A stretch of DNA of 64,000 nucleotides. Origin: Bacillales bacterium. GTDB lineage: Bacteria; Bacillota; Bacilli; Bacillales; DASSOY01. Position 1 is the first letter of the stretch. Each line of letters starts with the position of its first letter. Under the pieces are notes generated by a model that worked only from the letters and a program-made list of their open reading frames with translations, was not told the DNA's origin and ran no database searches. The stretch covers positions 80,771-144,770 of the forward strand of contig DASSOY010000072.1 of NCBI GenBank assembly GCA_035700025.1. Direction: 5' to 3'. Position numbers and translations under genes: made by a program. This document shows, piece after piece, positions 3 to 57,874 of this stretch.

Positions 3-101
3 GAAGACTTTGATTATTTCATCGAGTTAAGAAACCATCGCGATGAAGAAATTAATTACGATATGGTCGACAATAGTTTTTCCTCGTACGATTTTGATTA
101 A
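3..101 (+). CDS. 3' end of an upstream gene entering the window; product unknown
   Basis: The frame is open from the window edge and reads EDFDYFIELRNHRDEEINYDMVDNSFSSYDFD, with TAA at 99-101, 16 nt before the rodZ ATG. No family recognised. Confidence 0.3.
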   Translation, partial: EDFDYFIELRNHRDEEINYDMVDNSFSSYDFD

Positions 102-8123: not shown

Positions 8124-9878
8124 ATGGTTAATCAATTTTCTTGGAAAGTGGGCGGACAGCAAGGTGAAGGGATCGAAAGCACCGGGGAAATTTTCGCCTC
8201 CGCGTTGAACCGCTCAGGTTATTATTTGTACAGTTACCGTCATTTTTCTTCGCGAATTAAAGGCGGGCACACGAACAACAAAATTCGCGTAAGTACGACA
8301 CAAGTGCGTTCCATGTCGGATGATCTCGATTTGCTTGTCGCCTTTGATCAAGAAACGATTGATGTCAACGTCCATGAATTGAATGAAGGCGGCATTGTCT
8401 TAGCCGATGAAAAGGTGAAACCTCACGTTCCGGATGATTCCGGAGCACAGCTCTATTCGATACCGTTCACGAAAATCGCGACGGAACTTGGAACTTCGTT
8501 AATGAAAAATATGGTCGCGCTCGGAGCGTCGGCAGCCGCGCTTGGTTTGCCGCCTGACTTTTATGACGAAATCGTCGCAGAAATATTCGGCCGCAAAGGG
8601 CAAGCGGTCGTCGAAAAAAACCGTGAAGCGATTCGCCGCGGTGCGGAACACTTTCTCAAATTAGGCGGAAACCCGTTTCTTGAACTCGCAAAAGCCGACG
8701 GCAAGAAACGCATGTACATGATCGGCAACGACGCGATCGGTCTTGGCGCTTTAACCGCCGGGGTACGGTTCATGGCGGCTTATCCGATCACACCGGCGAG
8801 CGACATTATGGAATATTTGATTAAAAAACTGCCCGAGTTCGGCGGCACGGTCATTCAAACAGAGGATGAAATCGCTGCTTGCATGATGTGTATTGGTTCC
8901 AACTATGCTGGGACGAGGGCTTTTACAGCGTCCGCCGGTCCCGGGCTTTCCTTAATGATGGAGTCAATCGGGCTTGCCGGCATGACCGAAACACCGCTTG
9001 TCGTCGTCGATACACAGCGCGGCGGCCCGAGCACGGGGCTGCCGACGAAACAGGAACATTCGGATCTTTTGGCAATGATTCACGGCACGCACGGGGAAAT
9101 CCCGAAAATTGTTTTGGCTCCGAGCACGGTCGAGGAAGCTTTTTACGATATCGCGGAAGCTTTCAATCTCGCCGATCGCTATCAATGTCCAGTCATTTTC
9201 CTTTCCGACTTGCAATTGTCGCTCGGCAAACAAACCGTTGAACCGCTTGACTTGAAACGAATCAAGGTCGATCGCGGGCGCCTGCTGAAAGACGGAGAAC
9301 TTTCGGAACAAGAAGACAAGCAATATTTCAAACGGTACGAAACGACGGAAGACGGCATTTCTCCGCGCGTGTTGCCGGGAACGAAAAACGGCATTTTCCA
9401 CGCGACAGGCGTCGAGCATGATGAAACTGGAAAACCGTCGGAAAATGCGGAAAACCGAATTAAGCAAATGAATAAAAGGTTGCGCAAACTGCAAAATCTT
9501 TCTTACCCGGAAGCGATTTATCGGAACGCAAAACATCAGGAGGCCGATTTGCTCGTTGTCGGCATCAGTTCGAGTCGGGGAGCGATTGAAGAAGCGATTC
9601 CGCTATTGGAAGACGACGGCTGGAAGGTCAACCATGCCCACGTCCGTCTCGTTCATCCTTTCCCGGCCGATGAAATGAAAGCGTTGATGGACACAGCGAA
9701 ACGGATCGCGGTCGTGGAAAATAATGCAACGGGGCAATTGGCGTCCATCATCAAGACGAACGTTGGACAGGCTGAAAAAATCGAGAACGTCCTGAAATAC
9801 GACGGTACACCGTTTTTGCCGAAGGAACTTTATGGACAATTCAAGACAGTGTTGGACAAAAAAGCGGTTACGCAATAG
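8124..9878 (+). CDS. korA: 2-oxoacid (2-oxoglutarate):ferredoxin oxidoreductase, alpha subunit
   Basis: MVNQFSWKVGGQQGEGIESTGEIF, AAYPITPASDIMEY and GGPSTGLPTKQEHSDL are two-subunit OFOR alpha motifs. ATG 8124 follows AAAGGGGTG. Confidence 0.88.
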   Translation: MVNQFSWKVGGQQGEGIESTGEIFASALNRSGYYLYSYRHFSSRIKGGHTNNKIRVSTTQVRSMSDDLDLLVAFDQETIDVNVHELNEGGIVLADEKVKPHVPDDSGAQLYSIPFTKIATELGTSLMKNMVALGASAAALGLPPDFYDEIVAEIFGRKGQAVVEKNREAIRRGAEHFLKLGGNPFLELAKADGKKRMYMIGNDAIGLGALTAGVRFMAAYPITPASDIMEYLIKKLPEFGGTVIQTEDEIAACMMCIGSNYAGTRAFTASAGPGLSLMMESIGLAGMTETPLVVVDTQRGGPSTGLPTKQEHSDLLAMIHGTHGEIPKIVLAPSTVEEAFYDIAEAFNLADRYQCPVIFLSDLQLSLGKQTVEPLDLKRIKVDRGRLLKDGELSEQEDKQYFKRYETTEDGISPRVLPGTKNGIFHATGVEHDETGKPSENAENRIKQMNKRLRKLQNLSYPEAIYRNAKHQEADLLVVGISSSRGAIEEAIPLLEDDGWKVNHAHVRLVHPFPADEMKALMDTAKRIAVVENNATGQLASIIKTNVGQAEKIENVLKYDGTPFLPKELYGQFKTVLDKKAVTQ

Positions 9879-9893
9879 AGAGGAGCAATGAAC

Positions 9894-10760
9894 ATGGCAA
9901 CGGCAAAAGATTTTCGCAATACGGTGCGTCCGAATTGGTGCCCGGGATGCGGCGATTTTTCAGTACAAGCTTCCATTCAGCGTGCGGCCGCGAATCTCGG
10001 CCTCGAACCGGATGATATGGCTCTGATTTCCGGCATCGGATGTTCGGGACGCATTTCGGGTTACGTTAACACGTACGGTTTTCACGGTACGCACGGACGT
10101 GTGTTGCCGCTTGCGCAAGGCGTGAAGATGGCTAACCGGGACTTGACGGTCATCGCTGCAGGTGGAGACGGCGACGGTTTCGCGATTGGACTCGGCCACA
10201 CCCTTCATGCCATTCGTCGGAACATTGACATCACGTATATCGTCATGGACAACCAAGTATACGGGTTGACAAAAGGGCAAACGTCTCCTCGCAGCGAAGC
10301 AGGGTTTAAGACGAAGAGCACGCCCGAAGGCTCGGTGGAGTCGGCGATGTCTGTCATGGAAATGGCGTTAACCGCCGGCGGCTCGTTTATCGCCCAAGGG
10401 TTTTCCACGAACGTAAAAGAACTGACCGATTTAATTGAACGAGCGGTGCATCATAAAGGCTTTTCTTTCTTGAACGTATTCAGTCCGTGTGTCACTTATA
10501 ACAAAATCAACACGTACGATTGGTTTAAAGAAACGCTCGTCTCTTTAGATTCAGTCGAAAATTATGATCCGTCGAATCGCGTACAAGCAATGCAAACATT
10601 GATGGAGCACAACGGCTTTGTAACCGGAGTCATTTACCAGGATGAAAAACGCCCGTCTTACCAAGACGTCGCACACGGATACAGTAAGGAGCCGCTCATC
10701 GACGCTGATTTGTCGATCAACGAACGCAAGTTTGAGCAACTTTGTGCAGAATTCATGTAA
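9894..10760 (+). CDS. korB: 2-oxoacid (2-oxoglutarate):ferredoxin oxidoreductase, beta subunit (TPP-binding)
   Basis: WCPGCGDF, GIGCSGR and GGDGDGFAIGLGH (TPP motif). ATG 9894 is 8 nt after GAGGAG; ATG 9888 is an alternative start. Confidence 0.88.
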   Translation: MATAKDFRNTVRPNWCPGCGDFSVQASIQRAAANLGLEPDDMALISGIGCSGRISGYVNTYGFHGTHGRVLPLAQGVKMANRDLTVIAAGGDGDGFAIGLGHTLHAIRRNIDITYIVMDNQVYGLTKGQTSPRSEAGFKTKSTPEGSVESAMSVMEMALTAGGSFIAQGFSTNVKELTDLIERAVHHKGFSFLNVFSPCVTYNKINTYDWFKETLVSLDSVENYDPSNRVQAMQTLMEHNGFVTGVIYQDEKRPSYQDVAHGYSKEPLIDADLSINERKFEQLCAEFM

Positions 10761-10769
10761 CTTGATCGG

Positions 10770-10800
10770 AAAGCCCGGCCGCCCGGCCGGGTTTTTCTTT
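10770..10800 (+). terminator. Rho-independent terminator of korAB
   Basis: CCCGGCC-GCCC-GGCCGGG followed by TTTTTCTTTTT. Confidence 0.8.
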
Positions 10801-10967
10801 TTAACGCCGCTGAAAGGGATTTCAGTTTGTTTGCTTCAAGGAATTTTGAAAGCGTTTTCCTTACGGTTACATTTGTGCGTATGGAGTGGACACGTATCTT
10901 TACGAACTTCCGAAATAGTGTTAGAATAGTTTTGGTTATACGTTTTTTGGAGAAAGGGGTGTACACC

Positions 10968-12008
10968 GTGGAAGGAATGATGAAGGCACTCGTTAAGAGT
11001 GAACGAGGGAGTGGAGCCCAATTGAAGCAAGTCCAGATTCCTTCGATTTCGGATAACGAAGTGCTCGTGAAGGTGAAAGCTACATCCATTTGCGGAACCG
11101 ATGTTCACATATATACATGGGACGAATGGGCGCAAAGCCGGATTCAAACACCGTATACGTTCGGACATGAGTTTTCTGGTGTTGTTGTGGAAACCGGCAA
11201 AAATGTGATCGATGTGAAAGTCGGCGATCATGTTTCGGCAGAGACGCATTTTGTGTGCGGAAGATGTCCACAATGTTTGCGAGGAGATCATCACGTCTGT
11301 CAGCATACGAAAATTCTCGGCGTGGACGTGAACGGATGTTTTGCAGAATATGTGGCCGTTCCTGCGGAAAACATTTGGCACAACAGCAAAGAGACGCCGC
11401 ATGACATTGCATCCATTCAAGAACCGATGGGAAATGCGGTTCACACCGTTTTATCCGGTGATGTAACGATGAAAACGGTCGGTATCGTTGGCTGCGGTCC
11501 GATTGGGTTGCTTGCGATTGGTGTTGCGAAGGCTGCGGGTGCGGCGAACGTATTTGCTTTTGACGTGAACGATTATCGGCTTGATTTGGCGAAACAAATG
11601 GGTGCCGATGTAACCGTGCATTCAATGAACGAAAATCCGCTCGCAGTCGTGGACAAACATACCGGCGGAAACGGATTAGAGGTCGTTTGCGAAATGTCGG
11701 GCAACCCGATTGCGATGGACCAAGCGTTTAAGATGGTTTCCTACGGCGGCCGCGTCTCGATTCTCAGCTTGCCGACGAAGCCGATCACCCTCGATGTCAC
11801 GAATGACATCGTCTTTAAAGGTGTGACCGTGAAAGGCATTACCGGAAGAAGAATGTTTGAAACATGGCGTCAAGTTTCCAGCTTCCTTGAAACGAAATCG
11901 GTTGACGTTGAACCGATGATCACGCATTCGTTTAAACTCGAAGACTTTGAAAAAGGGTTTGACCTGATGATTCAAGGGAAATGCGGGAAGGTCGTTCTTC
12001 ATCCGTGA
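10968..12008 (+). CDS. tdh: L-threonine 3-dehydrogenase (Zn-dependent MDR family)
   Basis: GTG 10968 is 6 nt after GGAGAAAGGGGTG. (V)EGMMKALVK...[26 protein letters not shown] and GCGPIGLL are present. The ORF-track start at 10827 is a spurious extension. Confidence 0.9.
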
Positions 12009-12049
12009 GCATAAGTTCATATTTTAAAAACAAGAAAGGAGCATGGCCC

Positions 12050-13225
12050 ATGCAAGGCTTTGAATACTTACAAGAGCGTCTTGATGACATGAAGAAAGAA
12101 GGCGTTTTTCGCGAGCTCATTCCGCTCGAGTCGAAACAAGGCTCGAAGGTAACGATTAAAGGGAAAGAAGTCATTCAGTTGTCTTCGAACAACTACCTCG
12201 GTTTGACGGATCATCCGAAGATGATGGCTGCAGCGGAAAAGGCGGTTGAACAATACGGTGTCGGCACCGGTTCCGTACGTACGATTGCTGGAACGCTGGC
12301 GATGCACAATGAATTTGAGGAAAAATTGGCTGAATTTAAGCACACGGAAGCGGCGCTCGTCTTCCAATCGGGCTTTACGACGAACCAAGGGGTGCTTTCC
12401 TCCATTCTTAGCGAAGGCGACGTCGTCATTTCCGACGAATTGAACCACGCTTCGATTATCGACGGCATTCGTTTGACGAAAGCGGCTCGAAAAATTTACA
12501 AGCATTCCGACATGCAATCGCTCGAAGAAGCGCTGAAAGCTTCGCAAGACTATCGTACGAAGCTCGTTGTTACCGACGGTGTTTTCTCGATGGACGGCGA
12601 CATCGCACCGCTTCCGGAAATTGTCGAATTGGCCGAGAAATACGGCGCGATGGTCATGGTTGACGATGCACACGCCAGCGGTGTGCTTGGCAAAAACGGC
12701 CGCGGCACGGTCAATCATTTCGGTCTCGACGGCCGCGTACACATTCAAGTCGGTACGTTGAGCAAAGCAATCGGCGTGCTCGGCGGGTATGTCGCAAGTA
12801 CGCAAACGCTGCGTGACTATTTGATTCACCAAGGCCGCCCGTTCTTATTCAGCACCTCTCATCCGCCGGCAGTCACTGCGGCTTGCAGCGCGGCGATTGA
12901 CGTGCTGCAAGAGGAGCCGGAATTGATCGAAAAGCTTTGGGACAATACGCGCTTCTTCAAGCAATCGTTGAAAGATCTCGGCTTCGATATCGGCAACAGC
13001 GAAACGCCGATTACGCCGGTGCTTGTCGGCGACGGCGCGAAAGCGCATGAGTTGTCCGATCAACTGTTTGAACACGGCGTATTTGCGCAAGGCATTGCGT
13101 TCCCGACTGTACCGAAAGGGGCTGCCCGCGTGCGCAACATCGTTACGGCGCAACATTCGAAAGAGGAGTTGCAGCAAGCGATTGACGCTTATGAAAAAGT
13201 CGGCAAAAAACTTCGTCTCATCTAA
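12050..13225 (+). CDS. kbl: 2-amino-3-ketobutyrate CoA ligase (glycine C-acetyltransferase)
   Basis: [34 protein letters not shown] and the PLP lysine context GTLSKAIG. It follows tdh, as in B. subtilis. Confidence 0.92.
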
Positions 13226-36048: not shown

Positions 36049-37122
36049 ATGAACGAAGGATGGAACGCTATGGACGATTTTCAAGTGCCGGAAACATCGA
36101 TTGGACAAGTGTTGACGGAACAGCCTCCGATTATCGATGTTCGGACACCGAAAGAATTTGAACAGTTTCGGATCCCCGGAGCGATCAACATTCCACTTTT
36201 TTCGAACGATGAAAGGGTGCGGATCGGGACCACTTACACGCAAGATAGCAAAGAGGCGGCGGTGAAGCTCGGGTTAACTTTTTTTTCCGAAACCGCACGG
36301 CACTTTTATGACCGTTGCAAATCTGTGTACGAGAAACAACAAGCGCCTCTCGTCATCCATTGTTGGCGCGGGGGGATGAGAAGTCTTTCCGTTGTTTCTT
36401 TCTTGAACGCGTTAGGCCTCCCGTGCATGCAGTTGCAAGGCGGGATTCGCTCGTTTCGCCGCAAAATCGTCGCAGATCTTGAGCAAATGGCCGATCGCCT
36501 TCCTCCCTTCATCGTTGTGGAAGGCTTGACCGGCACGAAAAAGACAGTTCTGTTAACGGAACTCGAAAAGCAAGGTTATCCGGTGCTCAACATCGAACCG
36601 ATGGCGGGACACCGCGGTTCGACGTTCGGTGCCATTGGATTGTCGCAAACGAGCCAAAAGCAGTTTGAGTGCATGCTTTGGCAACGGCTTTCCGCATTGC
36701 AAGCGGCTCCATACATTCTTATGGAAGCGGAAAGCAAACGAATCGGACGCATCCAAGTCCCTGATTTTCTCATCGCTGCGAAACAAAACGGTGAACGCAT
36801 CCGCTTGCACTATCCTTTCGAAAAACGAGTACAGTATTTGATGTCCGAATATGAGCCCGAGCAACATGAGCAGGCAATTCGACAAGCAACGAAACGAATT
36901 GAGAAGAAACTGAGCGAGGACATTCGAACGACAGCGAAGGCAGCGATGGAAGGCGGCGATTTTCGCCGCTTGACCGCCCTGCTGCTCGAACATTATTACG
37001 ATCCGAGATACCGGTATACGTCAACGCAATACGACACTCCCGTACATGAGGTAAAGATGGAATCGTTGGAGGATGGCCTACAAAAAGTAAAGCAACGGCT
37101 CGGTCGGCCGGTGTTCGCGTAA
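36049..37122 (+). CDS. selU: tRNA 2-selenouridine synthase (rhodanese plus P-loop domains)
   Basis: Rhodanese region IIDVRTPKEFEQFRIPGAINIPLFSNDERVRIGTTY with active-site loop HCWRGGMRS. P-loop-like EGLTGTKKTVLL, then MAGHRGSTFG. Confidence 0.85.
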   Translation: MNEGWNAMDDFQVPETSIGQVLTEQPPIIDVRTPKEFEQFRIPGAINIPLFSNDERVRIGTTYTQDSKEAAVKLGLTFFSETARHFYDRCKSVYEKQQAPLVIHCWRGGMRSLSVVSFLNALGLPCMQLQGGIRSFRRKIVADLEQMADRLPPFIVVEGLTGTKKTVLLTELEKQGYPVLNIEPMAGHRGSTFGAIGLSQTSQKQFECMLWQRLSALQAAPYILMEAESKRIGRIQVPDFLIAAKQNGERIRLHYPFEKRVQYLMSEYEPEQHEQAIRQATKRIEKKLSEDIRTTAKAAMEGGDFRRLTALLLEHYYDPRYRYTSTQYDTPVHEVKMESLEDGLQKVKQRLGRPVFA

Positions 37123-37185: not shown

Positions 37186-38049
37186 TTGGCACAATTGAAC
37201 CGATGGAAAATGACTTTTTTGTTGTCAGGGGCTCTTTCCTTGACGTTATCCGGATGTTCCTACATCCAACAATACATGCCTTCCGACCGCCATGAATCGT
37301 CGGATCAGTCCGATCAGAGCGGGGCGGGTTCACAACAACAAGCGGAAAAGAACGATCAATCGAAAACAAAAACGAACTCGAAGCCAACGCAACAACAGAA
37401 ATGGGACGTGCCCGACCGCTTTCTTTTGAAAAATACGATCAAAACAACACCTGAAGGGAAACGTGTCGTAACGAATCCTGCTAGTTTGCTCGTTTGCGCA
37501 GACAAAAAAAGAAATTTGCCGGCCGACTACGAACCGAAAAACCTCGTCATTCCCGACGTTTATTTTCCGTACGGAAAGAATGCTAAACGGGAGAAAATGC
37601 ACATGCGAAAAGTAGCGGCCGAAGCGCTTGAACAATTGTTTGCCGCGGCGAAACAAGACGGTATACGACTCATGGCGATTTCCGGCTATCGTTCATACGA
37701 GCGGCAAGTGAGTGTGTTTAATTGGCACGTGAGTCAGAAAGGGAGCGTAGAAAAAGCGAATCGAGTGAGTGCTCGCCCGGGACAGAGCGAACATCAGACG
37801 GGCTTATCGATGGACATCTCGAGTGAACAAATCGGCCCGGATTTGACGCAAAAATTCGGGGATACGAAAGCCGGCAAATGGGTGGCGGCACATGCTGCGG
37901 AATACGGGTTTATTTTGCGATATCCGCCGGGGAAAGAAGCGATCACCGGCTATGAATACGAGCCGTGGCATTTGCGCTATGTTGGGAAGCAGCCGGCGGA
38001 AACGATTGCGAACCATCATTTGACTTTGGAGGAATACCTCTCCGAATAG
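37186..38049 (+). CDS. VanY/LdcB-type D-alanyl-D-alanine (LD-) carboxypeptidase, peptidase M15B lipoprotein
   Basis: Lipobox LTLSGC. Zn ligand motifs SEHQTGLSMD and EPWHLRYVG. TTG 37186 or ATG 37210 could be the start. Confidence 0.8.
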   Translation: MAQLNRWKMTFLLSGALSLTLSGCSYIQQYMPSDRHESSDQSDQSGAGSQQQAEKNDQSKTKTNSKPTQQQKWDVPDRFLLKNTIKTTPEGKRVVTNPASLLVCADKKRNLPADYEPKNLVIPDVYFPYGKNAKREKMHMRKVAAEALEQLFAAAKQDGIRLMAISGYRSYERQVSVFNWHVSQKGSVEKANRVSARPGQSEHQTGLSMDISSEQIGPDLTQKFGDTKAGKWVAAHAAEYGFILRYPPGKEAITGYEYEPWHLRYVGKQPAETIANHHLTLEEYLSE

Positions 38050-38060
38050 GGGATGACCAC

Positions 38061-38771
38061 ATGACGGAATTGAATCTTTTTGTCGCTTTCGGTGCAGGCG
38101 TCCTGTCGTTTGTTTCACCGTGCACGCTTCCGGTCTATCCAGGATTTTTATCCTATGTGACCGGCGTTTCTGTATCGGACTTGCAAAAAGAAAACGGGAT
38201 GTTGCAGCGGCGGGCGATCTTGCATACGGCTTTTTTCTTGCTCGGCTTTTCAGTGATTTTCATCGCGCTCGGTTTTTCAACTTCGCTCATCGGCGATTTG
38301 TTTACGCGTTACAATGATGCCTTGCGGCAAATCGGTGCGCTCGTTATTTTCTTTTTCGGACTGGTTGCTCTTGGCGTTTGGCAGCCGCGCTTTTTAATGA
38401 AAGATCAATCGTTCGTGTTTCGGGAACGTCCTTCCGGTTATTTCGGGTCCGTCATTATCGGGCTCGGTTTTGCTGCTGGATGGACCCCTTGCATGGGAAC
38501 GATCTTGGCAGCGGTGCTTGGATATGCTGTTGCCGATTCCGGTCCGGACGTCCCGTACATGATCGCTTACGTCGCCGGTTTCGCAATTCCGTTTTTCGTT
38601 TTGTCCTTCTTTTTGGGCAAGATTCAATGGATTCGCCGCCACAGCGCACGGTTCATGAAGGCGGGCGGCCTCGTGATGATCATCATGAGTGTGTTTTTGT
38701 ATTTTGATTGGATGACGAAGATTTCTTCCTTTTTGACGCAATATGTTTTCGGCGGTTTTCAAGGATTTTAA
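38061..38771 (+). CDS. ccdA: Cytochrome c biogenesis thiol-disulfide transporter CcdA
   Basis: ATG 38061. MTELNLFVAFGAGVLSFVSPCTLPVYPGFLSY and WTPCMG are the two conserved Cys motifs. Confidence 0.88.
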   Translation: MTELNLFVAFGAGVLSFVSPCTLPVYPGFLSYVTGVSVSDLQKENGMLQRRAILHTAFFLLGFSVIFIALGFSTSLIGDLFTRYNDALRQIGALVIFFFGLVALGVWQPRFLMKDQSFVFRERPSGYFGSVIIGLGFAAGWTPCMGTILAAVLGYAVADSGPDVPYMIAYVAGFAIPFFVLSFFLGKIQWIRRHSARFMKAGGLVMIIMSVFLYFDWMTKISSFLTQYVFGGFQGF

Positions 38772-43478: not shown

Positions 43479-43575
43479 TGGCGGGACCGTGTGGGAATCG
43501 AACCCACCGGAGACGGCACGCGCCTCCCGCAGGGCTTTGAAGGCCCGGGGGGACACCAGCACCCCAGCCGGCCCC
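43479..43575 (-). tRNA. selC: tRNA-Sec (anticodon UCA)
   Basis: The minus strand reads GGGGCCGGCTGGGGTGCTGGTGTCCCCCCGGGCCTTCAAAGCCCTGCGGGAGGCGCGTGCCGTCTCCGGTGGGTTCGATTCCCACACGGTCCCGCCA. Anticodon loop is CTTCAAA (TCA is the complement of 43538-43540). Extra arm is a 7 bp stem, GGAGGCG/CGTCTCC. T arm is GTGGG-TTCGATT-CCCAC. The long acceptor stem ends in encoded CCA. Total length 97 nt. Confidence 0.88.
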
Positions 43576-43646: not shown

Positions 43647-43682
43647 GCCGATACAAACATGGGAAACGCGGAGGTGTCGGAT

Positions 43683-45599
43683 GTGAAGCACTATACGGTC
43701 GGCATGGCGGGGCATATTGATCACGGGAAAACGGCGTTGACGAAGGCTTTGACCGGCGTCGACACCGATCGATTGAAAGCGGAAAAAGAACGAGGCGTAT
43801 CGATTGAGCCGGGGTACGCCCGACTCGATTTGGATGAGGAAATGCAAGTTTCGATCATTGACGTGCCGGGCCATGAACGTTTTATTCGACAAATGATCGC
43901 CGGGGTGGCCGGCATTGATCTCGTTGTTCTCGTCGTGGCAGCCGATGAAGGCGTGATGCCGCAAACGGAAGAACATTTGGAAATCTTGACTTATCTCGGC
44001 GTCGAAAACGGCATCGTCGTGATCACGAAATGCGAGAAGGCCGATGAGGAGATTCTCGAGCTCGTGAAAGAGGACGTCCGAGAAACGTTAAGCGACTGCT
44101 CATTGGCGGAAGCCGAAATCGTGTGCGTGGACAGCCTGTCCGGACGCGGCATGGCGACGTTGAAACAGCTGTTTCGAAAAAAACTGCCCGGAGTGGCGCC
44201 GCGAAAAAGGCAAGGGCCGTTGCGTCTGCCGATTGATCAAGTGTTTACGATCCACGGTCAAGGAACGATCGTGCGCGGCACGATCGTCGAGGGGACGGTA
44301 AAGGAAGGAGAAACGTTGACGGTCTATCCCGAAAGGCAGTCGGTACGCGTACGGCAAATTCAAGTGCAGCATGAACGGGTGAAACAGGCCGGCGCCGGAC
44401 AGCGGGCAGCGATCAACGTTAGCGGCTTGTCTAAGCAAGAGCTGCATCGCGGCGACGTGTTGGTCGGTTCGGACGCTGATTGGACGACGAAGCGACTCGA
44501 TGTGAAGGTAACCGCTTCCCGCAAGCTGCGACACCACGTGAAGCAACGAGCCCCGATTCGCCTTCATATCGGCACCGCACAGGCGAAAGGGAAGATGGTT
44601 TTTTTCGACCGAAAACAGTTGGAAGCCGGGGAAGAAGCTTACGTTCAGCTGCAGTTGGAAGAGCCGATTGTCGCTGTGAATGGCGATCGTTTCATCATAA
44701 GGCGGCCGACACCGGCGGAAACGATTGGCGGCGGGAAAGTCATCGAAGCGAAAGCGGAGAAACACCGGTTTGGCGAAGAAACGATCCAACGATTGAAAAA
44801 GAGAAGTGAAGGTACGCTGGAAGAAGCGGTGCTTGATCGGTTTGAACAGGAAGGCGCCCTCGCGGAACAGCAGATCTCCGATGCGTTTCGGGTGTATGGC
44901 GAACCGCTGAAGCAGCTGTTGGCAACGCTGCATGAGCGCGGGGTGATTCGGTTGATCGGTGATGGTCAATGGGTGTACCGACGTGCGTTCGATGAAGTCC
45001 AAAACGACATGATTGACCAATTGAAAGACTATCATGAACGATATCCGTTGCGCCGCGGCATTGAGAAAGCGGAAATGCTCAACCGTTTGAAAGGATCGGA
45101 AACGGTGAAGGAAGCGGCTCTTGAAGCGCTCGTTGCGAGCGAACGCGTGAACAGGCACGGACCTGTATTGGCATTGGCGGCGTTCGTGCCGGCAATGCCG
45201 AAAGCTTTCGAAAAACGATTGAAGCGGTTGACGGCGGAAATGGAGGAAGCGGGGCTCGAAGTCGATCATTGGCAGGCGCTCGTCGAGATGCACGGCCTGC
45301 CGGAAACGGTCGCCGCGGATTTTCGTGCGTTTTTGCTGGAGCAAAACAAGGCGGTGAAGCTCGGTGACTTTGCGTTAGTTCACCGGGAGGCGTTCCGTTC
45401 TGCGGTGCGTCGTTTATTCGAACATACCGGCGGGGCCCCGTTTGATGTGAAAACGGCGAAAGCGGCGCTTGACGTATCACGCAAATATTTGATTCCGCTT
45501 CTTGAGCGAATGGACGCGATGCAAATGACCGTTCGCACCGGAAATGAACGAAAATGGATCGATCGCGGTGTGCGCGGTTGGCTGAAACGAGAAAACTGA
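43683..45599 (+). CDS. selB: Selenocysteine-specific translation elongation factor SelB
   Basis: GTG 43683 is 6 nt after GGAGGTG. (M)KHYTVGMAGHIDHGKTALTKALTG, DVPGHERF and VITKCE are the GTPase motifs. An EF-Tu-like domain II/III follows, then a roughly 280 aa C-terminal extension of the kind that binds SECIS. The ORF-track start at 43464 runs across the tRNA-Sec gene. Confidence 0.92.
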   Translation: MKHYTVGMAGHIDHGKTALTKALTGVDTDRLKAEKERGVSIEPGYARLDLDEEMQVSIIDVPGHERFIRQMIAGVAGIDLVVLVVAADEGVMPQTEEHLEILTYLGVENGIVVITKCEKADEEILELVKEDVRETLSDCSLAEAEIVCVDSLSGRGMATLKQLFRKKLPGVAPRKRQGPLRLPIDQVFTIHGQGTIVRGTIVEGTVKEGETLTVYPERQSVRVRQIQVQHERVKQAGAGQRAAINVSGLSKQELHRGDVLVGSDADWTTKRLDVKVTASRKLRHHVKQRAPIRLHIGTAQAKGKMVFFDRKQLEAGEEAYVQLQLEEPIVAVNGDRFIIRRPTPAETIGGGKVIEAKAEKHRFGEETIQRLKKRSEGTLEEAVLDRFEQEGALAEQQISDAFRVYGEPLKQLLATLHERGVIRLIGDGQWVYRRAFDEVQNDMIDQLKDYHERYPLRRGIEKAEMLNRLKGSETVKEAALEALVASERVNRHGPVLALAAFVPAMPKAFEKRLKRLTAEMEEAGLEVDHWQALVEMHGLPETVAADFRAFLLEQNKAVKLGDFALVHREAFRSAVRRLFEHTGGAPFDVKTAKAALDVSRKYLIPLLERMDAMQMTVRTGNERKWIDRGVRGWLKREN

Positions 45600-45620
45600 C
45601 GGGCATTCCCGTCAGTTTTT
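45596..45620. terminator. Bidirectional terminator shared by convergent selB and selD
   Basis: CTGACGGG-CATT-CCCGTCAG, flanked by AAAA and TTTTT. The selB TGA (45597-45599) and the selD TGA (complement of 45612-45614) lie in opposite arms. Confidence 0.8.
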
Positions 45621-46658
45621 CACGGTCAACGTGTGCGGTCCCGCTTTCACGACTTCGCCGATGATTGCCGTATCGCCGCTGCCCGCCGCTTTCATTGCTT
45701 TCACATAAGTTTCCGCTGCCCGCCGCGGCAGGCTGACGAGCAACCCGCCGGACGTGACTGCGTCGCAAAGGATCCATTGCATCACTTCGTCGATATCGTC
45801 CGCGTAGGCTACGTCATTTTTTAACCATGCGTGGTTTTTCTTTGTGCCGCCCGGCACTTGCTTTAATTCCGCCAACACGCGCGTCCCTTCGAGAACGGGG
45901 ATGCTGCCGGCATCGATGATGAAACTGACGCCGCTTCCTTTCGCCATCTCGCACGCGTGGCCAAGCAAGCCGAAGCCGGTGACGTCCGTCACGGCATGCA
46001 CATCTACGCCTTTTAACAACCTTGCGGCATCCGCGTTCAACGTCGTCATCACGTCCGTGACTTTATTCAACCGGTCCGCGTTCAGTTTTCCATTTTTCAA
46101 AGCCGTTGTCTGAATGCCGACGCCGATCGGCTTCGTCAGGACGAGTACATCGCCTTCTTTCGCTCCGACGTTTCGGTGAAAGCGTTCCGGATGGACGATC
46201 CCTGTCACCGACAGCCCGAACTTCGGTTCCTGATCATCGATCGAGTGGCCGCCGACGACGACTGCGCCAGCTTCTTCTACTTTTATCGCCGATCCTTGCA
46301 AAATGTCCAGCAATATAGACTCGTCCAACTGCTTGATCGGAAATCCGACGAGATTGAGTGCCGTTTTCGGTTCGCCGCCCATTGCGTAAACGTCGCTTAG
46401 TGCATTGGCGGCGGCGATCTGCCCGAATGTGTACGGGTCATCGACGATCGGCGTAAAGAAATCGACCGTTTGGATGAGGGCAATCTCGCCGCTGATTTTG
46501 TAAACGCCGGCATCGTCGCTCGTCTCGGTTCCGACAAGAAGATTCGGGTCTTTCGTTGTCTTCGGAAGGTGACGCAAAACTTGCGTCAAATCGCTCGGTG
46601 CGATTTTGCAGCCTCAACCGCCTTTCGAGCTCAACGTCGTCAATCGGATGTTCGCCAT
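45612..46658 (-). CDS. selD: Selenide, water dikinase SelD, itself a selenoprotein (Sec15 encoded by TGA)
   Basis: Upstream of ORF 45612..46589 the same frame reads ATG(46658) A N I R L T T L S S K G G TGA G C K I A P S D L T Q V L R H L. This is the SelD N-terminal motif G-[C/U]-G-C-K with TGA (complement of 46614-46616) at the catalytic Cys/Sec position. RBS GGTGAGG. Total 348 codons. AIR-synthase-like body (DDAGVY, DFFTPIVDDP). Confidence 0.9.
46571..46587 (-). promoter_or_regulatory. Candidate bacterial SECIS hairpin of selD
   Basis: mRNA UGACGCA-AGUUU-UGCGUCA (7 bp stem). The core GACGCAAGUUUUGCGUC given by these coordinates starts 26 nt after the UGA, and the flanking U-A pair lies just outside them. 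The loop G lies about 34 nt from the UGA. Confidence 0.6.
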
Positions 46659-46694
46659 CGTTGCCTCACCGCCTTTTCGTTAATCTCCATGCTC

Positions 46695-46807: not shown

Positions 46808-47059
46808 GTGAAGTATCATGTGTCGATCGAATTTTGCATGCAATGAAACTACGCGCCAAAAGCCGCGAGTTTCGCGGAACAGTTATTCACTCATTATCGG
46901 GGGCAGTCGAACAGCATCGAACGGATCGAGCTGATCCCCGGTTCCGGAGGCGCCTTCGAAGTCAAGGTCAACGGGAAGCTGTTGTATTCAAAATACGAGA
47001 CGGGCGTGTTCCCGGAAGCCGAAAAGGTAATCAAGCAGATGGAGGCGATTGCCGGCTAA
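46808..47059 (+). CDS. SelW/Rdx-family selenoprotein (CxxU redox motif; Sec13 encoded by TGA)
   Basis: GTG 46808 is 8 nt after AAGGAGG. The frame reads (M)KYHVSIEFCMQ-TGA-NYAPKAASFAEQLFTHYRGQSNSIERIELIPGSGGAFEVKVNGKLLYSKYETGVFPEAEKVIKQMEAIAG, then TAA at 47057-47059. The TGA at 46844-46846 completes a C-M-Q-U motif, and LIPGSGGAFEV and LYSK..TG.FPE are typical of bacterial SelW-like proteins. The ORF track shows only fragments (46556..46846 and an out-of-frame 46801..47088). Confidence 0.85.
46863..46877 (+). promoter_or_regulatory. Candidate bacterial SECIS hairpin of the selW-like gene
   Basis: CCGCG-AGUUU-CGCGG starts 16 nt after the UGA, with the loop G about 23 nt from the UGA. The loop is the same as in the selD hairpin. 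Confidence 0.6.
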
Positions 47060-47084
47060 TCGCGATCCCCGTATGGAGGAAGAT

Positions 47085-48488
47085 ATGAATCGATTAATGC
47101 GCATGCTGCCTGCCGTGCACGTTTTGCAGGAACATCCAAAATTCAATGAATGGGCACAGCGTTTCGAGATTTCCGAGACATTTTTGACAGAGGAGCTGCG
47201 CGCGGAACTTCAACAACTGCGCGAAGCTTTATTGGCCGGAACGTGGAAAGGCGAACCGACGGCTGAAGCGTTGACGGCGCATCTTTTCGAAAAATTGGCC
47301 GAGCGGCTCGAGTCGTATCGTGCGAACAAGCTGACGCCGGTGATCAACGGCACCGGTGTCGTCCTCCATACGAATTTAGGGAGGGCCAGGTTGAGCGACG
47401 AGGCTGTACAGGCGGTCACGAGAGCGGCGGTGAATTACTCGAGTTTGGAGTTCAATCGTGAAACAGGAAAGCGCGGGTCGCGCCACGATCTTGTTGAACC
47501 GTATGTTTGCCGGTTGACTGGCGCGGAAGCGGCCATGGTCGTGAACAATAACGCGGCTGCGGTTTTTCTTGTTTTGTCGGCTTTGGCTTCAGATCGCAAA
47601 GTGATCGTTTCGCGTGGTCAACTCGTCGAAATCGGCGGATCTTTTCGCGTGTCTTCGATCATGGAGGAAAGCGGCGCGCTGCTCGTAGAAGTAGGCACGA
47701 CGAATAAGACGCGATTGCATGACTACGAGGAAGCGGTCGATGAAGAAACCGCGATGATTATGAAAGTACATACGAGTAATTTCACGATTCGCGGGTTCAC
47801 GGAAACCGTGGATACCGCCCCGTTGGCAAAATTGGCCGCCGATCGCGAATGCGTTTATTACGAAGATCTCGGGAGCGGAGCGATTTACGATTTCCGCGCA
47901 GAAGGCATCGGGAAAGAGCCGCTCGTTGCTGAAGTGCTCGCGAAAGGCGCAGATCTCGTTTCGTTCAGCGGCGACAAGCTTTTCGGCGGCCCGCAAGCGG
48001 GGATTATCGCTGGAAAAAAACAGCTAATCGAGCGGTTGAAGAAGCATCAATTGGCCCGTGTTCTGCGTGTTGATAAAATGACTTTGGCCGCGCTCGAGGC
48101 AACGATGAAAGCTTATCTATTCGGAAAAGCGCAAACAACGATTCCGGTCATCCGCGATATGACCGCTACTGTTGCCGACATCCGTGCGCGTGCAGAACGA
48201 TTTGTTTCGTACGCCAATCGTACCGTTCCAGCGTTTCGGTTCGCTGTAAGAGAAGAAACGTCCAAGGTCGGGGGCGGGACAATGCCGGATGTCGCTTTGC
48301 CAACTTGCGGCGTCACCATTGTACATCCGCAATGGACAACGCAAATGGTTTTGGATCACTTGCGAAGTCACGAACCACCTGTGATCGGCCGCGTCGCCTC
48401 CGAAAAAGCGTTCCTCGATTTTCGAACGATTCGCGAAGACGAGTGCGAATCGGTATTGTCGGCGCTTCGCGAACCCGTCGATCAATAG
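47085..48488 (+). CDS. selA: L-seryl-tRNA(Sec) selenium transferase SelA
   Basis: ATG 47085 follows GGAGGA. MNRLMRMLPAVHVLQ, NNNAAAVFL and the PLP-lysine context SFSGDKLFGGPQAGIIAGKK. Confidence 0.92.
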   Translation: MNRLMRMLPAVHVLQEHPKFNEWAQRFEISETFLTEELRAELQQLREALLAGTWKGEPTAEALTAHLFEKLAERLESYRANKLTPVINGTGVVLHTNLGRARLSDEAVQAVTRAAVNYSSLEFNRETGKRGSRHDLVEPYVCRLTGAEAAMVVNNNAAAVFLVLSALASDRKVIVSRGQLVEIGGSFRVSSIMEESGALLVEVGTTNKTRLHDYEEAVDEETAMIMKVHTSNFTIRGFTETVDTAPLAKLAADRECVYYEDLGSGAIYDFRAEGIGKEPLVAEVLAKGADLVSFSGDKLFGGPQAGIIAGKKQLIERLKKHQLARVLRVDKMTLAALEATMKAYLFGKAQTTIPVIRDMTATVADIRARAERFVSYANRTVPAFRFAVREETSKVGGGTMPDVALPTCGVTIVHPQWTTQMVLDHLRSHEPPVIGRVASEKAFLDFRTIREDECESVLSALREPVDQ

Positions 48489-48558: not shown

Positions 48559-49518
48559 ATGTACAAAACGATCGTCGTCGGAACTGGACCGGCGGGCTTG
48601 ACGGCGGCCATTTACTTGGCACGCGCCGATATGGCCCCGCTCGTCATCGAAGGACCGGAACCGGGCGGGCAACTGACGCTCACGACTGAAGTAGAGAACT
48701 TTCCGGGCTTTCCCGACGGCATCATGGGTCCGGCATTGATGGATGACATGAGAAAACAAGCTGAGCGTTTCGGCGCGACGTTCGAAAGAGGTTATGTGAA
48801 ATCCGTCGATTTTTCAAACAAACCGTTTTCGCTGACGGTTGATTCGCTCGGGACGTTTGAAGGGGAGTCGGTGATTATTTCTACCGGCGCATCGGCAAAA
48901 ATGCTCGGCGTTCCGGGAGAGAGTGAAAACGTCGGCAAAGGCGTCAGCACGTGCGCGACATGTGACGGCTTCTTTTTTCGCGGCAAAAAAATTGTTGTCG
49001 TCGGCGGTGGCGATTCGGCGATGGAGGAAGCAACGTTTTTGACGAAATTCGCTTCCGAAGTGACGGTCATTCATCGCCGCGACGAGCTGCGCGCGTCGAA
49101 AATCATGCAAAATCGGGCGAAGGAAAACGAAAAAATTAAATGGAAGCTGAACGCGCAAGTGAAGGAAATTTTGGCGGATAACGGGAAAGTGAGTGCCGTT
49201 CAATTGGTGAATCAGAACGGCGTCGAAGAAACGTTAGCCACCGACGGCGTTTTCATTGCGATCGGTCATACGCCGAACACGGAGTTCTTGAAAGGGCAGG
49301 TCGGGATGGATGATAAAGGTTATTTGAACGTGAAACCGGGAACGACGGAAACGACGGTTGACGGGGTGTTTGCCTGCGGAGACGTACAAGATTTCACGTA
49401 CCGTCAAGCGATCACGGCGGCCGGAACCGGTTGCATGGCGGCGATGGATTGCCAGCGTTATCTCGAGGGAAACGCGTTCACGGACTGGAGCCTAAGCACG
49501 GATCAAGCAAAAAAATAA
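48559..49518 (+). CDS. trxB: Thioredoxin-disulfide reductase (low-Mr TrxB type)
   Basis: ATG 48559 is 8 nt after GAGGAGG. VVGTGPAGLTAAIYLAR, redox centre CATCDG, GGGDSAMEEA and GVFACGDV. It lies 70 nt after selA on the same strand, with no intervening terminator seen. Confidence 0.9.
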   Translation: MYKTIVVGTGPAGLTAAIYLARADMAPLVIEGPEPGGQLTLTTEVENFPGFPDGIMGPALMDDMRKQAERFGATFERGYVKSVDFSNKPFSLTVDSLGTFEGESVIISTGASAKMLGVPGESENVGKGVSTCATCDGFFFRGKKIVVVGGGDSAMEEATFLTKFASEVTVIHRRDELRASKIMQNRAKENEKIKWKLNAQVKEILADNGKVSAVQLVNQNGVEETLATDGVFIAIGHTPNTEFLKGQVGMDDKGYLNVKPGTTETTVDGVFACGDVQDFTYRQAITAAGTGCMAAMDCQRYLEGNAFTDWSLSTDQAKK

Positions 49519-55804: not shown

Positions 55805-55836
55805 AAGAAACCGGGAATCTGTTCCCGGTTTTCTTG
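55805..55836 (+). terminator. Rho-independent terminator of tlp
   Basis: GAAACCGGGAA-TCTG-TTCCCGGTTTTC. Confidence 0.85.
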
Positions 55837-55884
55837 TGCCTGCGCTGCCGACGCTATACAATGGCAAACGAAGGGAGTGTCACG

Positions 55885-56961
55885 GTGAGACGTTTGTATT
55901 TAGTCGGGGCGGGCCACGCCCACCTGTATGTGCTGAACCGGCTGCGGCGCGAGAGGCTTCCGGGGGTTGAAGTATCGCTTCTTACGCCGGAAACGGTGAA
56001 ATTCAGCAGGGAAATGGCTGCCGGTTATATCGAAGGTTTATATACGAAAGCACAAATGGGTTTGGATATTGGGGAGCTGGCGAAACAGGCCGGTGCGAAT
56101 CATATAAAAGCTGCGGTGATGTCGATCGATCCACTGCAGAAAGCGGTTTTAACCGAAAAAGGCGGGTACCTCGAATACGATGTCATTTCTTTCGACATCG
56201 GGGCGTTGACGGAAGCGACGGATCTCCCGGGCGTATTGACGGCCGCCGAAATGCTGCGGCCGAATGAAAAGCTTCCGGACGCGCTGGACCGGCTGATTGC
56301 GGCGGAGCAGCTCGTGATCGCCGGCGACGGAGATGCTTGTGCGGAAATTGCGTTCGCCTTGCAGGCGAGGAGAATGAAGGAAGGAAAGACACCGGTTCGT
56401 TGGATCGGTGGATTCAACAAAGGCACCGCTTTCCGCGCGTTTCCTCCTGATGCTGAGCAATGGGCGCAGGATGCCGGCATTTTGCTGCATAAAAATAGTC
56501 GAGTACGGCGGGCAGGAGGCGGAAAGCTGGAGACGGACAACGGCGCCGTCCACTTGTACGATCGATTGCTCTGGATTTATCCGCCGCGCCCTCACAAGTT
56601 GTTTCGTGCGGCACTCCCTGTGGACAGCGACGGGTATTTGCTCGTCGAAAAGACGTTGCAAGTGAAGTCGTTTCCTTCCGTCTTTGGAGCTGGTGACTGC
56701 ATCACAGTGAACCGGCATTCCCATATTGCGCATGAGGGACGGTATGCGGTAGACGAAGGGCCGGTGTTATGGAAAAATTTGCGCGGTTATTTCACGGACG
56801 GAGAAGGCCGAACTTTCGCACCGGCGAATGCCGCGTATTGTTTTTCGACGGGAAACAAGCAAGCGGTGTTGCGTCGGAAGCGAAAGGTGATTCGAGCCGG
56901 TTGGGTGCATCGGTTGAAAAGTTACGTCGACCGCACGTACGTAAAAAAATCTTCTCCGTAG
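55885..56961 (+). CDS. FAD-dependent pyridine nucleotide-disulfide oxidoreductase family protein (GAGHAH type, of the kind found fused or adjacent to SelD)
   Basis: GTG 55885 is 7 nt after GGGAG. (M)RRLYLVGAGHAHLYVL is the Rossmann start, followed by a second dinucleotide fold LVIAGDGDACAEIAFAL and the C-terminal FGAGDC. Confidence 0.8.
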   Translation: MRRLYLVGAGHAHLYVLNRLRRERLPGVEVSLLTPETVKFSREMAAGYIEGLYTKAQMGLDIGELAKQAGANHIKAAVMSIDPLQKAVLTEKGGYLEYDVISFDIGALTEATDLPGVLTAAEMLRPNEKLPDALDRLIAAEQLVIAGDGDACAEIAFALQARRMKEGKTPVRWIGGFNKGTAFRAFPPDAEQWAQDAGILLHKNSRVRRAGGGKLETDNGAVHLYDRLLWIYPPRPHKLFRAALPVDSDGYLLVEKTLQVKSFPSVFGAGDCITVNRHSHIAHEGRYAVDEGPVLWKNLRGYFTDGEGRTFAPANAAYCFSTGNKQAVLRRKRKVIRAGWVHRLKSYVDRTYVKKSSP

Positions 56962-57301: not shown

Positions 57302-57430
57302 CTTCCTTTCCGCTAGGCTTGTTTTCTAGTATACCGAAAAACGAAGCGCTTGCGTAACCATGTGCTTACGGTTTTCGTTTGTACGGATTCGGGTATCATA
57401 ACGACGTATGAATTAGAAAGGGTGAGAGGA

Positions 57431-57874
57431 ATGGCATCGACATTTCGGGAGGTACGCATAAAAAGTACGACCGTCGGCCTGAAAAGCGTCGTGGAGGCGG
57501 CTGATCACACGTTTAACTTGGACGAACCAGCGGCGATCGGCGGAACGAATACGGGACCGAACCCTCTTGAAGCGTTTCTCGGCGCACTCGCCGGATGTGA
57601 AAACGTAACGGCGCGATTCGTTGCCAAGGAAATGGATTTTGATCTTGCGGGCATGACGTTCGAGATTTCCGGCAGTTACGACAGCCGCGGGCTGAAAAGC
57701 GGGGCGGAAGTGCGTCCAAATTTTCGAACCCTCGAAATTCGCGTGAATGTGGAAACGACGGAATCGGAGGAACGGTTGAAACGGCTGCAAGAGGAAACCG
57801 ACCGCCGTTGCCCGGTTTTTTCCACGCTTGAAGCGGCCGGCATTGAGGTTTCAATCGATTGGCGAAAGGTGTAG
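57431..57874 (+). CDS. OsmC/Ohr-family peroxiredoxin-like protein
   Basis: ATG 57431. GPNPLEAFLGALAGCE and the second Cys in RRCPVF. Confidence 0.85.
   Translation: MASTFREVRIKSTTVGLKSVVEAADHTFNLDEPAAIGGTNTGPNPLEAFLGALAGCENVTARFVAKEMDFDLAGMTFEISGSYDSRGLKSGAEVRPNFRTLEIRVNVETTESEERLKRLQEETDRRCPVFSTLEAAGIEVSIDWRKV

Follow-up and report, generated by a model that had tools for sequence, protein, structure and literature searches.

A selD gene with an in-frame UGA, predicted to encode a selenocysteine-containing selenophosphate synthetase, in an uncultured lineage of Bacillales

The selD locus

The gene considered here is selD, on the minus strand of a 64,000-nucleotide stretch of DNA (the window, positions 80,771 to 144,770 of contig DASSOY010000072.1, assembly GCA_035700025.1) that belongs to a metagenome-assembled genome (MAG) of the Bacillales. 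An initial annotation, made from the letters of the sequence without database searches, had proposed that selD itself encodes a selenoprotein, with an in-frame TGA at the catalytic cysteine (Cys) or selenocysteine (Sec) position and with an N-terminus that had been missed by open reading frame (ORF) calling. The analysis described below makes it highly probable, on sequence evidence, that selD of the window encodes a 348-residue selenophosphate synthetase with Sec in its catalytic N-terminal loop. The features of the gene, numbered from the first letter of the window, are as follows; hairpin 2 is the predicted core of the selenocysteine insertion sequence (SECIS).

45612..46658, minus strand: full selD coding sequence, 348 codons plus a TGA stop, predicted Sec at codon 15 (from translation, NCBIfam profiles and the match to PDB 3U0O, E = 7e-82 over residues 3-339)
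46656..46658, minus strand: ATG, the true start codon (no other start codon from the in-frame TAA upstream as far as the TGA; strong Shine-Dalgarno sequence)
46664..46675, minus strand: Shine-Dalgarno sequence AAGGCGGUGAGG for ATG 46658 (from duplex energy with the 16S 3' end)
46614..46616, minus strand: UGA, predicted Sec codon (codon 15), equivalent to Cys17 of E. coli SelD (from reading frame, alignment and Bacillales relatives)
46587..46589, minus strand: TTG of the mechanical ORF list, not a real start (no Shine-Dalgarno sequence; located where hairpins 1 and 2 join; product without the catalytic loop)
46588..46606, minus strand: hairpin 1, AAAUCGC-ACCGA-GCGAUUU, directly 5' of the SECIS core (from minimum free energy and centroid folds)
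46570..46588, minus strand: hairpin 2, the predicted SECIS core, (U)GACGCAA-GUU-UUGCGUC(A) (from folds, pair counts, RNAalifold, synonymous coupling and the bacterial SECIS model)
45596..45615, not assigned to one strand: 8-base-pair (bp) hairpin CTGACGGG-AATG-CCCGTCAG and runs of T on both strands (seen by direct reading)

On the minus strand ATG 46658-46656 is followed by ANIRLTTLSSKGG, by the TGA at 46616-46614 (codon 15) and then by GCKIAPSDLTQVLRHL. The gene opens with the codons ATG GCG AAC ATC CGA TTG ACG ACG TTG AGC TCG AAA GGC GGT TGA GGC TGC AAA, and its N-terminal translation reads M-A-N-I-R-L-T-T-L-S-S-K-G-G-*-G-C-K-I-A-P-S-D-L-T-Q-V-L-R-H-L. The frame that runs from ATG 46658 to the stop at 45614-45612 contains the 348 codons that had been counted in the initial annotation, and the mechanical ORF list begins the gene at TTG 46589 (MTQVLRHL...) to give a product of 325 amino acids. 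An in-frame TAA stands 8 codons 5' of ATG 46658 and there is no further start codon in between, so that ATG 46658 is the only start able to include the loop. With the 3' end of Bacillus 16S rRNA, AAGGCGGUGAGG (46675-46664) forms a duplex of -13.6 kcal/mol, which beats those of all 314 in-frame control positions inside selD, compared to only -2.6 kcal/mol for the 25 nucleotides (nt) 5' of TTG 46589, a codon which in the predicted fold sits where hairpins 1 and 2 meet. TTG 46589 is thus not a real start and ATG 46658 is the true one, as had been argued initially from the ribosome-binding site in front of it; the accompanying claim that the ORF called from 46589 misses the catalytic N-terminus proved equally sound, the truncated form being without the equivalents of Cys/Sec17 and Lys20 of the E. 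coli enzyme.

At the other end of the gene the hairpin at 45596-45615 holds the stop codons of both convergent genes, the TGA of selD at 45612-45614 and that of selB at 45597-45599, and it is probably a bidirectional terminator common to the two, although it was absent from the list produced by a simple terminator scan. UGA ends 13 of the 41 long ORFs in the window, selD included, and is therefore an ordinary stop there, which excludes a reassigned genetic code.

Identity of SelD and of the residue encoded by UGA

Profile searches of the 348-residue protein were run with Cys substituted for the in-frame stop. The NCBIfam SelD equivalog TIGR00476 matched at 412.3 bits against a cutoff of 125, with residues 5-314 lying on profile positions 1-310/311, and NF002098 matched at 385.7 bits against a cutoff of 299. 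Since position 1 of TIGR00476 is aligned at residue 5, the codons 5' of the called start belong to the family. The best match of known structure was E. coli SelD, PDB 3U0O (E = 7e-82, residues 3-339), followed by SelD of Aquifex aeolicus (2YYE/2ZOD), and the N-termini of both these proteins align with that of the window protein. Residue 15 falls on Cys17 of 3U0O and residue 18 on Lys20, so that the loop K-G-G-U15-G-C17-K18 of the window is set against G-A-G-C17-G-C19-K20. The placing of the TGA at 46614-46616 at the catalytic Cys/Sec position, which had originally been made from the motif, is borne out by this alignment. The gene product is predicted from these matches to be a selenide, water dikinase (selenophosphate synthetase).

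A scan of one genome per species yielded 80 Bacillales selD loci whose products are 59-66% identical to the window protein, and three closer relatives were obtained in addition from other metagenomes; overall the comparative set comprises 38 selD genes with TGA at the codon equivalent to codon 15 (TGA-type) and 46 with a Cys codon (Cys-type). Among the 80 loci the codon is TGA in 34, TGC in 43 and TGT in 3, which lies far outside chance expectation, so that the alignment of U15 with orthologues proposed in the initial annotation sets it against TGA in 34 and Cys in 46. All 80 have flanks of the form (I/V)(K/R)-L-T-x-(L/F/Y)-(S/T)-x-K-(G/A)-G before the codon and G-C-K after it, and the catalytic-loop motif is kept throughout. 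The three closest relatives all have TGA, followed by K-(I/L)-A-P-S-D-L-T-Q-V-L-R-H-L-P, the same peptide as in the window; gene callers had shortened their SelD to 321-324 amino acids, and related genes were called at 317-324 amino acids. The window protein is about 60% identical to the Cys-type enzymes of Bacillales and no more than 69% identical to any match in a collection of 5.8 billion proteins. The initial annotation would have been in difficulty had the 23 codons upstream of the called start been unlike SelD N-termini, but the profile, the E. coli and Aquifex alignments and the 80 relatives all agree that they are SelD-like.

The SECIS element

In the published model of the bacterial SECIS (bSECIS) the element has a loop of 3-9 nt, an upper stem of 4-16 bp and a distance of 16-37 nt between the UGA and the loop, with a G in the first two positions of the loop, often followed by G or U (PMC13188914). 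Hairpin 2 agrees with this description in every respect: it has a stem of 7 bp (46587-46571), extended to 8 bp by the pair U46588-A46570, which closes on a 3-nt GUU loop, 33 nt 3' of the UGA, in which G is followed by U.

Hairpin 2 was compared between the two types of selD gene. At the same codon-aligned position between 6 and 7 of the 7 pairs are formed in 35 of 35 TGA-type genes, compared to between 1 and 6 (median 4) in 46 Cys-type genes (Mann-Whitney p = 9e-16). Of the cells in the helix 98.8% are paired, with double compensatory changes at 4 of the 7 pairs, and these statistics were reached by none of 500 shuffles, whilst in slid registers pairing always dropped to 26-54%. RNAalifold recovers the hairpin de novo. 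The three closest relatives retain it, with a GUG or GUU loop. In the best-controlled comparison the difference persists when the encoded peptide is held constant, as genes with an identical Q-V-L-R form 6-7 pairs in 33 TGA-type cases and 3-6 in 15 Cys-type cases (p = 7e-11). In the TGA-type genes with this peptide the Gln codon CAA always occurs with the Leu codon UUG (23 genes) and CAG with CUG (10 genes), whereas Cys-type genes use CUG, CUC, UUA or CUU for Leu irrespective of the Gln codon. The sequence comparison thus indicates selection on RNA structure at synonymous sites, specific to those selD genes that bear the UGA.

Hairpin 1 presents a different picture. The three closest relatives share the form found in the window, AUCGC-NNNNN-GCGAU, and in most other TGA-type genes there is instead a hairpin GGUCC-UGA-GGACC in a different register; double compensatory changes are not found. 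In the register of the window 5-6 of the 7 pairs form in Cys-type genes too, about as well as in TGA-type genes, partly because the Ile codon AUC and the Asp codon GAU are reverse complements. Hairpin 1 was considered as the SECIS and rejected, given that its register and sequence vary by clade, that there is no double compensation and that Cys-type pairing is similar. It is possibly an accessory element and may in part be a by-product of the coding sequence. The loop peptide differs along with it, the clade of the window having I-A-P-S-D-L with AUCGC/GCGAU and most other TGA-type genes I-G-P-E-D-L with GGUCC/GGACC; Cys-type Bacillales selD genes mostly encode I-G-P-A-D-L. A lower stem closing both hairpins (UGC/UGU-AAA with UUU-GCC/ACC) was frequent in single-sequence folds, but it was missed by RNAalifold and is absent in the window, and it was discarded.

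The whole window was scanned for other TGA-interrupted frames accompanied by SECIS-like hairpins, and only selD was found; the remaining hairpin matches of that scan were terminators or short spurious extensions.

Genomic context

The selenium-related genes and other features around selD in the window are the following.

43483..43575, minus strand: selC, tRNA-Sec with anticodon UCA (ARAGORN; Rfam RF01852, 58.2 bits against a gathering score of 47)
43659..45599, plus strand: selB, Sec-specific elongation factor (TIGR00475, 367 bits against a cutoff of 242)
47049..48488, plus strand: selA, L-seryl-tRNA(Sec) selenium transferase (TIGR00474, 556 bits against a cutoff of 268; start between 47049 and 47085)
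48559..49518, plus strand: trxB, thioredoxin reductase (TIGR01292, 392 bits against a cutoff of 343)
36049..37122, plus strand: mnmH/selU, tRNA 2-selenouridine synthase (NF008750, 337 bits against a cutoff of 241)

selD is flanked by convergent selB and divergent selA. The tRNA-Sec is the only Rfam family to pass its gathering score in the whole window. SelB carries the Pfam SelB beta-barrel together with the winged-helix domains SelB-wing_2 and SelB-wing_3, and its gene starts at ATG 43659 or GTG 43680, some 85-105 nt from the divergent selC; a longer ORF of 711 amino acids from 43464 is an artefactual 5' extension that overlaps selC on the opposite strand. With selU at 36049-37122, about 9 kb from selD, in addition to the Sec machinery, the genome combines the two selenium traits of Sec decoding and tRNA selenouridine.

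Among the relatives the surroundings of selD depend strongly on the type of codon. selA was located within 6 kb of selD at 29 of 34 TGA-type loci and at none of 46 Cys-type loci (Fisher p = 5e-17), and a tRNA-Sec was present at 12 of 34 TGA-type loci compared to none of the 26 Cys-type loci scanned. Conversely, selU/mnmH directly follows selD at 43 of 46 Cys-type loci but at only 3 of 34 TGA-type loci (p = 2e-15). The arrangement in the window is of the TGA type, with a separate selU in addition. This association, the neighbouring Sec machinery and hairpin 2 all support the initial annotation, in which they had not been mentioned.

Several TGA-type relatives (L002, 7644-11144; L020, 7085-11625) have a Phn-type ABC transporter between selD and selB, the binding protein of which resembles the "putative selenate ABC transporter" family at a score below the cutoff. 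The same interval also contains a "selenium metabolism-associated LysR regulator" (335 bits, above the cutoff) and a GT4 glycosyltransferase weakly similar to the selenosugar synthase SenB. Neither the transporter nor the regulator nor the glycosyltransferase lies between selD and selB in the window.

Between selA and a gene for aconitase lies trxB, its start 70 nt downstream of the selA stop codon. A 79% identical trxB occupies the same place in the closest relatives (L081, L083), and at the 34 more distant TGA-type loci it was not found within 6 kb of selD. Its product may supply reducing power or selenide, or aid selenite reduction. No grd genes occur within the window. In the closest relative, L081, a glycine reductase cluster (9121-12966) comprising GrdA, a thioredoxin, a second TrxB and GrdB lies by selD, and GrdA of this cluster (9121-9639, minus strand), which had been shortened by the gene caller, reads ...TQCFV*TAAGAMD, a classic Sec motif. 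A pyridine nucleotide-disulfide oxidoreductase at 55834-56961 (plus strand) had as its best match the family "Nterm_to_SelD", at 185 bits and thus below the cutoff of 310. Two further ORFs were considered as selenoproteins, since their best NCBIfam matches belong to families that include selenoproteins, and were dismissed. For the OsmC-like ORF at 57350-57874 (plus strand) this match was "OsmC-related (seleno)protein", at 75 bits and so short of the cutoff of 95; both of its catalytic positions are Cys, there is no in-frame TGA, and it is an ordinary OsmC. The DsbD/TsoB-like ORF at 37965-38771 likewise has no in-frame TGA and is an ordinary Cys protein, CcdA. The remainder of the window is an ordinary core Bacillales chromosome. 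Exact sequence look-ups gave no match for SelA, the truncated SelD or aconitase, and three other proteins of the window traced it to a MAG of the Bacillales.

Alternative explanations

A first alternative is that the codon is simply a stop, in which case selD would be a pseudogene or would be expressed in truncated form from TTG 46589, without the catalytic loop. It has to be said for this explanation that mechanical ORF calling produces the same model, as it does for the related genes of 317-324 amino acids, and that other ORFs of the window have UGA as an ordinary stop. However, the TTG is without a Shine-Dalgarno sequence and is buried between two hairpins, and the 14 codons before the TGA are conserved as protein in 80 species, which is unexpected of untranslated sequence. 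The truncated protein would also be without Cys/Sec17 and Lys20, the TGA has been kept at this codon in 37 other genomes along with a conserved hairpin that is specific to TGA-type genes, and a selD pseudogene would deprive an intact selA, selB, selC and selU of selenophosphate. A genuine stop is accordingly considered very unlikely. The possibility that the TGA is an assembly or sequencing error, the true codon being TGC or TGT, might be raised because the source is a MAG and TGC differs from TGA by one base, but it is the least probable of the explanations considered and can hardly be entertained, as hairpin 2 and its synonymous codon choices are those of the TGA type rather than the Cys type, the context is likewise that of the TGA type, with selA, selB and selC, and not the selD-selU operon of Cys-type genes, and the three closest relatives, sampled independently, likewise have TGA between the same flanking residues.

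A further proposal is that the UGA is recoded, but mainly to a residue other than Sec, for example Cys via Cys-tRNA(Sec) or Trp via near-cognate readthrough, so that SelD would work with Cys or Trp there, at least under selenium scarcity. In favour of this there is a logical bootstrapping problem, in that Sec synthesis needs SelD, which itself needs Sec, and in some systems a shortage of selenium can lead to Cys being incorporated at Sec codons. On the other hand, a full Sec machinery and a SelB-type SECIS conserved along with the TGA make sense only with decoding by SelB and Sec-tRNA(Sec), and SelD is inherited at cell division, so that bootstrapping is not needed in the steady state. As the principal outcome at this codon, non-Sec insertion is about as improbable as a genuine stop, and it would be at most a minor or conditional mode.

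A number of observations weigh against the interpretation of selD as a Sec-encoding gene, or limit its force. The source is a MAG from an uncultured organism and Sec insertion is inferred from its sequence. The relatives are phylogenetically non-independent, so that the counts of covariation exceed the number of events that were truly independent. Neither selA nor selB lies within 6 kb of selD in five of the 34 TGA-type relatives, although both are presumably located in other parts of the genomes concerned. Set against shuffled sequences, the local fold is of no exceptional stability (z = -1.3), and in a search of the selD strand between 46450 and 46750 Rfam returned no match even at E <= 10, the only match at a permissive threshold being SCARNA3, on the opposite strand and spurious. 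Support for the SECIS thus comes from the consensus model and from comparison among relatives and not from a curated covariance model; the missing match means that no matching curated model exists and does not show that hairpin 2 is no SECIS.

A model for selD decoding

If selD encodes a selenoprotein, as is highly probable, its expression would follow the established bacterial pathway (PMC1794560, PMC13188914). Translation would initiate at ATG 46658, and SelB, with GTP and Sec-tRNA(Sec), would bind hairpin 2 (46570-46588) at its GUU loop by way of the C-terminal winged-helix domains and bring the Sec-tRNA(Sec) to the A site, where the UGA at 46616-46614 would be read as Sec rather than as a termination signal. 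Sec would thereby come to lie in the flexible, selenium-handling loop at the N-terminus. The terminal UGA of selD, which is followed by no such hairpin, is an ordinary stop. The selenophosphate made by SelD would then pass to SelA for the synthesis of Sec, that of SelD itself included, and to MnmH/SelU for tRNA selenouridine. Actual Sec insertion, SelB binding to hairpin 2 and a selenium-dependent self-regulation of the enzyme are all predictions of this scheme.

It may be that there is more to the element than this. A speculative extension, to which only a low probability can be attached, is that the SECIS is composite, with the GUN-loop hairpin needing the clade-specific hairpin 5' of it and each of the alternative forms accompanied by its own amino acid changes in the loop, and that the UGA would serve as a selenium-sensing gate on the selenophosphate supply of the Sec and selenouridine traits alike, SelD possibly being the only selenoprotein of the genome.

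Relationship to known systems and implications

SelD containing Sec is a long-established and major bacterial selenoprotein family and has been called the second largest family of prokaryotic selenoproteins (PMC1794560, PMC4561486, PMC13188914). Zhang et al. (2006) listed SelD among the selenoproteins of many bacteria and argued that it helps to keep the Sec trait in species without FdhA, among them some with the selenouridine trait as well (PMC1794560), and Mariotti et al. (2015) mapped the Sec and Cys forms of SelD across prokaryotes (PMC4561486). The window gene resembles the Sec-SelD genes of bacteria and archaea, such as those of Haemophilus influenzae, Clostridia, Deltaproteobacteria and Aquifex aeolicus (PDB 2ZOD/2YYE) in belonging to family TIGR00476, in having its UGA in the G-x-G-U-G-C-K loop, in having a predicted SECIS within the coding region right after the UGA and in its linkage to selA, selB and selC, and the occurrence of a Sec form alongside the selenouridine trait has likewise been described (PMC1794560). 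There is no difference in kind between them; what sets the window protein apart is its identity of at most 69% to any match and its origin in an uncultured Bacillales lineage. It differs from most Sec-type SelD of Bacillales in that its clade has K-I-A-P-S-D-L with AUCGC/GCGAU where the others have K-I-G-P-E-D-L with GGUCC/GGACC. With E. coli SelD (3U0O) and the Cys-type SelD of Paenibacillus and other Bacillales it shares the same fold and the same catalytic loop, but Cys-type enzymes have Cys where Sec is predicted in the window, their genes have no conserved hairpin after the codon, and in Bacillales they form a selD-selU operon without selA or selB. The predicted SECIS can be compared with that of E. 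coli fdhF and the bSECIS model of Zhang and Gladyshev (summarised in PMC13188914), which also have a stem-loop in the coding sequence 3' of the UGA with a small G-U loop, but the 33 nt spacing is near the long end of the range, there is an extra hairpin in the spacer between the UGA and the SECIS, and the binding of SelB is only predicted.

The finding is thus correct but already known in kind, here in the genome of a divergent, uncultured member of the Bacillales. It is chiefly of use as a corrected gene model and as a comparative illustration, and the understanding of selenoprotein biology is unchanged by it. The 38 TGA-type and 46 Cys-type selD genes constitute a clean set in which SECIS selection at synonymous sites can be seen. 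In practice the correction matters, as annotation of selD from TTG 46589, or as a pseudogene, loses the catalytic loop and wrongly implies that the organism is unable to synthesise selenophosphate.

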